Under the pieces are notes generated by a model. That model was given only the letters and a program-made list of their open reading frames with translations, searched no databases and had not been told where the DNA came from. This document shows, piece by piece, positions 39,252 to 39,821 of a stretch of DNA of 64,000 nucleotides. Each line of letters opens with the position of its first letter. Position 1 is the stretch's first letter. A program made the position numbers and the translations under genes. Source of the DNA: Dictyostelium discoideum (Eukaryota); contig CM000151.3 in assembly GCA_000004695.1 (NCBI GenBank), positions 5,920,001 through 5,984,000 of the forward strand, in the 5' to 3' direction.

Positions 39252-39678
39252 CATAATAATAATAATATAAATAACATAATAATAATAATAATTATATTTC
39301 TTTTTTTGAATCCATACATAATTATATACTTATATAAATTAATTCATATTTATAATGTAACACAATTAAAACTATAATTAACTAAAACATTTATTGTAGA
39401 TTTAAATATTTAAAATAAAATTAAAAAAAAAAAAAAAAAAAAAATATATGTATATTAAGTAAAATGTTTATTTTTAAAAAAAACTAGATGTGAATAAAAA
39501 TTTTAAAATATTCAATATTGAGATTTTAAAAAACATAAAATGATATTGATAAATCAACTTTTTTAAGTTGGTTTAAAATTATATTACCAAAATTTGAATT
39601 TTTTTTTTTTTTTTTTTTACAGAGATTTTTTTTTTTTTTTGATTTTGTAGATCTATTAATTTGGAATTTTTTTTTATT

Positions 39679-39686
39679 TCCCATAA
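39679..39686 (+). promoter_or_regulatory. DUSE-like box TCCCATAA, with GTGGATTG 56 nt downstream and a T12 run about 50 nt after that
   Basis: This is part of a roughly 170-bp unit that is duplicated at 45090-45260. Confidence 0.35.
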
Positions 39687-39790
39687 ACATGGTATCAATT
39701 AACCAAATTATTAAAGGGTTGGTTAAATTTTTATTTTTTTTGTGGATTGTATGGTGTTAAAAAATGTGAACAATAAATAAATAAATCAAT

Positions 39791-39821
<31 letters not shown>

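Follow-up and report, generated by a model that had tools for sequence, protein, structure and literature searches.

A duplicated unit on chromosome 2 of Dictyostelium discoideum AX4 (chr2 5,959,590-5,959,800 and 5,965,090-5,965,460) is, on balance, probably the DUSE-type promoter of a lineage-restricted, previously undescribed gene for a structured and putatively expressed noncoding RNA (ncRNA). At this locus, the putative RNA gene is confined to the D. discoideum species complex. The unit has a defined anatomy, is conserved and keeps its spacing, and the sequence that follows it has a conserved, strand-specific fold. From these features we infer transcription, the polymerase and a loss of function in AX4, whose two copies look like remnants of a single type of RNA gene, neither of them intact.

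Both copies lie in the window, the whole 64-kb stretch of DNA that was analyzed, whose AT content is extremely high. The published coordinates of two Class I RNA genes on DDB0232429 (DdR-41, 5946991-5947050, and DdR-44, 5966044-5966089; Kjellin et al. 2021, PMC7919456) match the window coordinates plus 5,920,000, which places the window at chromosome 2 positions 5,920,001-5,984,000. The module sits in the gap between two convergent genes, and its neighborhood contains the following features.

26993-27050, plus strand: DdR-41, Class I RNA gene (RF01414, 49.5 bits; sequence identical to the published one)
36945-39251, plus strand: ORF of a PP2C-like phosphatase gene, the upstream neighbor
40569-41560 (degraded) and 41788-44100: two tandem paralogues of a B-box/FNIP-repeat gene, between the repeat copies
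46046-46089, minus strand: DdR-44, Class I RNA gene (RF01414, 34.7 bits; sequence identical to the published one)
47005-50421, minus strand: next conserved gene on the downstream side, convergent with the PP2C-like gene, with its last exon probably at 46546-46905

The B-box/FNIP-repeat paralogues contain 129-bp tandem repeats, and a short-chain-dehydrogenase-like pseudogene fragment also lies between the two repeat copies in AX4. DdR-44 and one Class I-like pseudogene are found 0.4 to 0.9 kb from the module.

The first-pass annotation had described a repeated unit of 170 bp. The duplication and the DUSE box TCCCATAA in each copy are real, but the block is about 350 to 420 bp long (approximately 39404-39764 versus 44832-45256) and is part of a segmental duplication. 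Aligning 39626-39764 with 45118-45256 gave 115 matches, 15 mismatches and 18 gapped nt, and a 26-nt core, TTAACCAAANTATTAAAGGNTTGGTT, occurs exactly twice versus 0 occurrences expected by chance. A second repeated unit of 180 bp, also noticed earlier, was recovered (39296-39480 versus 39941-40123, with 91% ungapped identity, and a partial copy at 44832-44949) and corresponds to the conserved 3' flank of the PP2C-like gene. Below, this flank is called unit B, the promoter unit is called unit A and the candidate RNA body is called X.

39296-39480, plus strand: unit B, probably the 3' UTR of the PP2C-like gene (ORF end 39251), duplicated together with the promoter unit
39481-39678, plus strand: upstream part of unit A in copy 1, common to all six copies in the alignments
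39679-39686, plus strand: copy 1 DUSE, TCCCATAA
39709-39715, plus strand: copy 1 TATA-like box TATTAAA, -33 to -27 from the predicted start
39734-39764, plus strand: copy 1 T8 run, predicted start G (39742) and first 23 nt of the RNA
39790-39821, plus strand: T13-C-T18 run in place of the lost RNA body
39941-40134, plus strand: unit B', a second copy of the 3' flank, of which 40049-40134 matches the start of the copy 2 block
44832-45178, plus strand: copy 2, partial unit B and upstream part of unit A
45179-45186, plus strand: copy 2 DUSE, TCCCATAA
45200-45206, plus strand: copy 2 TATA-like box TATTAAA, -34 to -28, with a 9-nt deletion between DUSE and box
45234-45459, plus strand: copy 2 candidate RNA body X, about 222 nt plus T4 (nhmmer 45234-45457, E = 6e-66)
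45234-45250, plus strand: 5' arm of X
45255-45295, plus strand: hairpin H2 of X
45299-45337, plus strand: hairpin H3 of X
45348-45375, plus strand: H5 of X
45419-45433, plus strand: small hairpin of X
45435-45454, plus strand: 3' arm of X
45456-45459, plus strand: T4 of X

The T-run reported behind copy 1 is present as T13 (39790-39802) and T18 (39804-39821). So is the GC-richer segment behind copy 2, with a GC content of 0.35 to 0.37 at 45300-45400 versus 0.06 to 0.25 in the preceding 500 bp and 0.08 to 0.21 downstream. The region 45300-45460 had been noted as looking structured; it does look so, but it makes up the 3' two-thirds of X and is no feature of its own. The upstream part of copy 2 contains an internal additional repeat of the GATTTTGT(A/G)G block.

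Both boxes fit the DUSE consensus [AT]CCCA[CT]AA, as had been proposed, but WCCCAYAA is not enriched in the window (8 found versus 10 expected). Since the motif occurs at chance frequency, it carries no weight alone, and the case is built on its context and on the comparison across genomes. The simplest alternative would be that the unit is inert duplicated intergenic DNA, in which the DUSE and its spacing are coincidental and the inverted repeat is a leftover of duplication without an RNA product. Besides the motif count, it is favored by the block having been duplicated together with the plainly nonpromoter 3' flank of the neighboring gene, and by the high local alignment scores that AT-rich segments of the window reach by chance (null maximum of 196). 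Two further points in its favor, the loss of the module in D. firmibasis and D. citrinum and the damage in both AX4 copies, come from the comparison with related genomes.

Orthologous loci from six assemblies were collected by homology search with the PP2C-like protein and cluster look-up. They represent another D. discoideum (L001), two D. cf. discoideum (L004 and L005), two D. citrinum (L002 and L006) and D. firmibasis (L003). By BLAST, every species compared has unit B as a conserved sequence flanking the PP2C-like gene on its 3' side (window 39000-39441 matches L002 11981-12394 at 83%, and D. firmibasis at 75%). Unit A was found only in the D. discoideum complex, with two copies in AX4, two in L001 and one each in L004 and L005. 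BLAST detected no module at the orthologous locus of D. firmibasis, and the D. citrinum locus has scrambled remnants of the module's 3' part only, which suggests that the module is either dispensable or very young. The convergent genes are 7.7 kb apart in AX4 (ORF to ORF). The gap measures 3.1 kb in L001, 1.85 kb in L004 and 1.0 kb in L005, and in D. citrinum and D. firmibasis it is about 0.6 kb and 0.36 kb, respectively. By BLAST, L001, L004 and L005 do not have the B-box/FNIP block (40135-44844), which is therefore an insertion of the AX4 lineage within unit B of copy 2.

Each DUSE unit of L001, L004 and L005 continues into a homologue of window 45234-45460, and the body of L001 copy 1 is tandemly duplicated (X1a/X1b). 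Copy 1 of AX4 lies in a region 91% identical to L001 12035-12813 over 788 columns and is collinear with L001 copy 1 up to 39764, 23 nt past the predicted start G, where homology to the intact copies stops and the sequence jumps to the T-runs; the body of copy 1 has therefore been lost in AX4. Copy 2 is collinear with L001 from 13663 on (78% over 2,459 columns). The expectation of two intact ncRNA genes in the window thus fails on both sides, as copy 1 has no body past 23 nt and copy 2 has a noncanonical spacer of 47 nt. No protein-coding gene that the promoter could serve was found downstream in L001, L004 or L005, where the flanking genes converge. Searching the window and the six loci with nhmmer (198 kb of Dictyostelium sequence) yielded only the syntenic copies, and a 22-base signature of X, scanned as an exact pattern against metagenome contigs, gave 0 matches.

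The DUSE, the TATTAAA box and the sequence TTTTGTG are invariant in the six copies from four genomes. Conservation is about even throughout unit A, so the invariance of the DUSE among such close relatives is weak evidence. The spacing of the promoter elements is another matter for the reading as inert DNA. The start G is a predicted one, placed where the conserved terminal helix begins. The distance from the end of the DUSE to this G is 56 nt in AX4 copy 1, 58 nt in L001 copy 1, 59 nt in both L001 copy 2 and L004, and 57 nt in L005. This range of 56 to 59 nt is held in five of the six copies despite differing T-run lengths, which argues against coincidence. Only in AX4 copy 2 is the distance 48 nt, and this copy lacks 9 nt, GGTATCAAT, present in every other one. 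A GTGGAT site 54 to 56 nt past the DUSE, as annotated for the pair, accordingly exists in copy 1 (55-nt spacer) but not in copy 2 (47 nt). The TATA-like box at about -30 resembles the PSE plus TATA layout of type-3 polymerase III promoters.

The predicted distances of 56 to 59 nt match what has been described for other genes of the organism. Typically, a D. discoideum ncRNA gene starts about 60 nt from its DUSE, at 56 to 60 nt in the curated genes without a TGTG box, and the element is used by both polymerase II and polymerase III genes (PMC7919456, with distances in its Table S3). In many Class I genes the DUSE lies further upstream, with a TGTG box (AAATGTG) about 60 nt on (57 to 62 nt from DUSE to TGTG in Table S3) and the mature RNA beginning 8 to 33 nt later; Kjellin et al. 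2021 (PMC7919456) left the question whether this box acts in the promoter or marks where a precursor begins. DdR-41 obeys the rule, with its DUSE at 26898-26905 and the end of TAATGTG at 26965, 60 nt later. At the locus studied here, the DUSE is followed by a TTTTGTG that ends 58 nt away in copy 1, 50 nt away in copy 2 and 59 to 61 nt away in the orthologues; this box shares only TGTG with AAATGTG. A perfect AAATGTG does occur in copy 1 (39762-39768), 82 nt from the DUSE and beyond the 57-to-62-nt range. The proposal that the DUSE box acts in a promoter and that transcription begins at the G of GTGGAT thus gains partial support, from the spacing and from the conserved fold that begins there.

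The resemblance to Class I genes raises the possibility that the unit is a relic of a Class I RNA promoter whose gene was lost, X being unrelated. TTTTGTG ends 58 to 61 nt past the DUSE in five copies, within the Class I range of 57 to 62 nt, and DdR-44 and the Class I-like pseudogene are close by. Against this, the box is TTTTGTG rather than AAATGTG, the conserved fold begins at the GTG itself, and no CCTTACAGCAA motif or RF01414 match (E <= 10) was found downstream in the four genomes. We consider such a relic improbable. Likewise, the Class I 11-nt motif CCUUACAGCAA, expected next to the 5' stem, is absent from all copies, and the Class I length criterion of 42 to 65 nt sets the candidate apart, as it has a 17-bp terminal stem but an RNA of 215 to 280 nt. 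The published Class I tables hold no entry at chr2 5,959,6xx or 5,965,2xx (PMC7919456), nor do the portions consulted of the miRNA (PMC6161686) and lncRNA (PMC5295588) supplements.

Known RNA families were sought with Rfam 15, in the window at gathering and E-value thresholds, in an 8-kb region at E <= 10 and in L001 to L005 of the six loci. No family covered the unit or X in the window or in L001 to L005. For RF01414, whose gathering threshold is 41.5 bits and for which the published classifier uses at least 15, nothing was found at 39600-39900 or 45200-45500 at E <= 10, nor in the orthologous copies. Overall, the matches comprised tRNAs, DdR-41, DdR-44 and its orthologues, weak Class I-like pseudogenes and chance matches, the last including a greA leader (29 bits; gathering threshold, 60) and a histone stem-loop (19 bits; gathering threshold, 34) on copies of X. 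A further Class I gene lies upstream of the locus in L004 (51-108, 51 bits). The snRNA, SRP and snoRNA covariance models proposed in the first-pass annotation gave no match at either copy, and a tRNA or SINE origin was discarded, ARAGORN giving no match here. Elsewhere in the window, a DUSE-like box on the minus strand (59078-59085) has a Class I-like GTTGA...CAACTG stretch 61 nt downstream; it was rejected as a further gene, being located within a local tandem repeat with a nonsignificant fold (z = -0.5).

The main evidence for an RNA product comes from the fold of X. In the intact copies the RNA would be 215 to 280 nt long, with the first ~17 nt paired to the last ~17 nt around several hairpins. 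The partner of the 5' arm is located 190 to 250 nt downstream, and the terminal stem begins exactly at the predicted start G. In L001 copy 2, GTGGATCGTTTTATATG pairs with CATATGAAACGATCCAC, and CACATTTT follows. The arms of AX4 copy 2, GTGGATGGTTTTATGTG and CACATTAAACGATCAACCAC, pair with three mismatches, and this stem is the weakest among the copies; the terminal stem of L004 also has three mismatches. The 5' arm of AX4 copy 1 begins GTGGATTGTATGGTGTT, with the predicted start G at DUSE end + 56. Its possible product (39742-39794) has a minimum free energy (MFE) of -1.4 and z = +1.55, a value that rules it out as a structured RNA. T13-C-T18 could serve as a polymerase III-type terminator of such a run-off product of about 50 nt.

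In single-sequence folding, the z-scores of the MFE were -3.2 (AX4), -7.4, -4.7 and -6.1 on the plus strand versus -1.9, -3.7, -3.9 and -1.7 on the minus strand, the plus-strand MFE of the AX4 copy 2 body being -51.3. RNAalifold gave, for the three type-2 copies, -54.1 kcal/mol on the plus strand (z = -10) and -32.1 on the minus strand (z = -5.3), and with L005 added -46.9 (z = -13) and -22.8 (z = -6.4), these z-scores being relative to column shuffles, a lenient null. When sliding windows of 230 columns were run along the 1.8-kb collinear intergenic alignment of AX4, L001 and L004, the plus-strand windows over X reached -27 to -31 (z of -4.6 to -5.4), and the others ranged from -4 to -18 (z mostly from -2.4 to +0.6), none of them folding like X.

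An alignment of five copies has a consensus of 60 pairs in six helices, in which 92.3% of the cells are paired versus 42 to 49% when the 3' partner is slid, with a covariation score of 0.24 versus 0.04 to 0.08; the related sequences number just five or six and are closely related, and they are also the ones that yielded the structure. Both partners have changed in 11 of the 60 pairs, versus 1 to 5 in slid alignments and 5.1 +/- 1.4 in shuffled ones (0 of 500 shuffles reached 11), part of the both-sided changes in helix 2 being a one-column alignment shift in L004. As a hold-out, the structure derived from type-2 copies was applied to the type-1 copy L005, where 64 of 75 pairs were retained versus 28 to 37 of 75 when slid, and 7 of the paired positions were changed on both sides. 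The strand asymmetry is due to the many conserved G-U pairs, which speak for an RNA and against a DNA palindrome. Protein coding was discarded, with stops in all six frames, a longest open stretch of 12 to 62 codons in a frame that differs among copies, no ORF conserved across copies and indels that are not multiples of three.

For inert DNA, a strand-specific, G-U-dependent fold with 11 both-sided changes would be hard to account for, as would the retention of 85% of the pairs in the hold-out copy and the behavior of X, unmatched by any other window of the intergenic alignment. We therefore regard inert DNA as unlikely. The same data bear on another proposal, that X is a MITE-like or foldback element with terminal inverted repeats of ~17 bp that landed by a DUSE-like motif. 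Arms of 17 to 19 bp around ~190 bp would suit such an element, and small inverted-repeat elements such as thug-S are known in D. discoideum (PMC6161686). However, the arms lack a target-site duplication, promoter and body were copied as one segment, and the junction of X1a and X1b in L001 lies inside X and not at the arms. The arm changes are compensatory and tolerate G-U pairs, which would be senseless for transposase sites, and only local copies exist in the 198 kb of Dictyostelium sequence. A mobile element of this kind seems very improbable.

The 3' ends of X count against a DUSE-driven gene. In type-2 copies T4 directly follows the 3' arm, whereas type-1 copies end in CCTAATAAA without a T-run; T4 is a weak terminator beside the T6 behind DdR-44 and the T20 (20 T) behind DdR-41. 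X might instead be a structured domain of a longer polymerase II transcript (a read-through 3' UTR of the PP2C-like gene, an lncRNA or a pri-miRNA), with the DUSE irrelevant. It shares the strand of the PP2C-like gene and lies some 500 nt past its stop codon, the end of type-1 copies is AATAAA-like and has no T-run, and a G after an oligo-T tract is the usual polymerase II start in Dictyostelium, pri-miRNAs included (PMC6161686). On the other hand, the outermost helix closes at the junction of T-run and G and just before T4, as would fit a discrete RNA, every stem is too short for a 21-nt miRNA duplex, and the parts of the miRNA and lncRNA supplements consulted list nothing at these coordinates. 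A longer transcript appears quite unlikely to us.

Returning to a DUSE-driven RNA gene, an intact module would consist of the conserved upstream region of ~200 bp, the DUSE (-64 to -57), TATTAAA (approximately -33 to -27), a T-run and the start G. Judging from other DUSE genes, RNA polymerase (II or III) would be placed about 60 nt downstream by a factor that binds the DUSE, and the transcript would fold into a closed multihairpin particle. The module and the 3' flank of the neighboring gene were duplicated segmentally. AX4 copy 1 retains a canonical promoter (predicted start at +56) without the body and would produce at most an unstructured RNA of ~50 nt. Copy 2 retains the body, with a DUSE-to-start distance of 48 after the 9-nt deletion and three mismatches in the stem. 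Class I candidates that score high but have no DUSE at the correct position are silent (PMC7919456), and copy 2 may therefore be weakly expressed or silent.

Among known systems, the closest are the Class I RNA genes (RF01414; DdR-21 to DdR-67). Like the candidate, they have a DUSE ~60 nt upstream and a TGTG-containing sequence past it (at 58 to 61 nt in five copies of the candidate), their RNA starts with G, and its 5' and 3' ends form a terminal stem. They are also clustered, multicopy and of fast turnover, and the candidate module adjoins one of them, DdR-44. The differences are as clear, since Class I RNAs measure 42 to 65 nt (rare members up to 141 nt) versus ~220 to 280 nt, and the candidate has neither the CCUUACAGCAA motif nor the GUUGA...UCAACUG termini and contains several conserved internal hairpins in contrast to the unstructured variable region of Class I. 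The U1, U2, U4, U5 and U6 snRNA genes of D. discoideum have the same upstream element, the DUSE, at an equal distance (PMC3188802, PMC7919456). The candidate matches neither in sequence nor in structure the Rfam 15 models of snRNA, SRP, RNase P/MRP, U3, vault, Y and 7SK RNAs. With thug-S-type MITE or foldback elements it shares short inverted repeats around ~200 bp, but it differs from them in having no target-site duplication, in being duplicated with its flanks and in its strand-specific G-U pairing. More tentatively, we suggest that these copies represent a new family of ~220-nt DUSE-driven RNAs, apart from Class I and Class II RNAs, snRNA and SRP RNA, born, duplicated and lost within the species complex, with a 5' helix that starts at the GTG occupying the place of the TGTG box of Class I promoters.

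DUSE-dependent genes are the main route of dictyostelids to abundant small ncRNAs, and a link has been drawn between Class I RNAs and multicellular development. A structurally distinct DUSE-driven RNA, if true, would widen the ncRNA repertoire of the dictyostelids. The locus illustrates, within a group of very close relatives, how an ncRNA gene is gained, tandemly duplicated and degraded, and it is a warning that for some genes that wild isolates have intact, the AX4 reference may offer nothing but relics. AX4 provides two natural promoter variants, one of them canonical but with no body behind it, the other with a body but a shortened spacer. If the reading as a new family holds, the 9-nt spacer deletion of copy 2 would be a natural test of the spacing rule, and the TGTG box would be a real initiation site ~60 nt from the DUSE, answering the question of Kjellin et al. 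2021 (PMC7919456).

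The two AX4 copies of the module, a putative DUSE promoter unit followed by a candidate structured RNA body (cut short in copy 1), are separated by a 4.7-kb block (40135-44844) that was missing at the orthologous locus in all three of the other D. discoideum-complex assemblies. An approximately 80-bp duplication is found at both of its edges (40049-40134 and 44845-44925), and the block contains the following:

about 40140-40330, short-chain-dehydrogenase-like pseudogene fragment
40569-41560, degraded B-box/FNIP-repeat gene
41788-44100, full paralogue of the B-box/FNIP-repeat gene, with 129-bp tandem repeats

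Among the known Class I RNA genes in the window, DdR-41 showed the textbook arrangement of DUSE and TGTG box, and a tRNA-His gene (27195-27266, minus strand) is convergent with DdR-41, ca. 145 bp away. For DdR-44 (46046-46089, minus strand), the DUSE distance of 67 nt is non-canonical. Two further candidates are listed with the DdR-41 elements:

26898-26905, DdR-41 DUSE, TCCCACAA
ending at 26965, DdR-41 TGTG box, TAATGTG
starting at 26993, DdR-41 RNA
45863-45907, minus strand, Class I-like sequence GTTGACCTTTCAGCAAATA...GTCAACCG, 21.6 bits against RF01414 (Dictyostelium Class I RNAs)
59085-59078, minus strand, DUSE-like box ACCCATAA, within region 58946-59125

The Class I-like sequence has no DUSE in the 100 nt upstream and is probably a Class I pseudogene. 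Its counterpart is kept in D. cf. discoideum (L004, 13487-13531, 27.7 bits against RF01414) and was also seen in the second D. discoideum assembly (L001, near 14700-14745). The DUSE-like box is followed 61 nt downstream by GTTGATTTCACCCCC...GGGGGGCAACTGTCTC, with Class I-like termini, and this stretch lacks the CCUUACAGCAA motif. The box lies inside a local tandem repeat of two copies (CACCCCCAAG.TATT.TTGTAATT.AC....AAAATC), and the fold was non-significant (z = -0.5); the combination is probably a chance match.

Within the module, a small palindrome (AACCAA...TTGGTT) flanks the TATA-like box in both AX4 copies (39701-39726 and 45192-45215). In L001 copy 1 (12750-12775) both arms have changed with symmetry retained (AACTA...TAGTT), and the remaining copies preserve it less well. 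Such a palindrome could serve to bind a protein, or could have arisen by chance.

The L001 RNA-body paralogue X1a carries a perfect 10-bp GC hairpin (12814-12845, GCCCACCCCA-N12-TGGGGTGGGC) in place of GTGCAAAAAGTATTTAAATAATGGGGAAGC, the sequence in the other copies. The 5' arm of this hairpin has the appearance of a newly made inverted duplicate of its 3' arm.

Scrambled remnants of the RNA body 3' part, CCCACCACACTTTATAAACAAAA and TTGATTCAATCCATTT...CTTTTCAAAAAG, were found in D. citrinum (L002, 12499-12530; L006, 12520-12640), where both loci lack the DUSE unit. Such remnants indicate that the module is older than the D. discoideum/D. citrinum split, having arisen before it and then decayed in D. 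citrinum.
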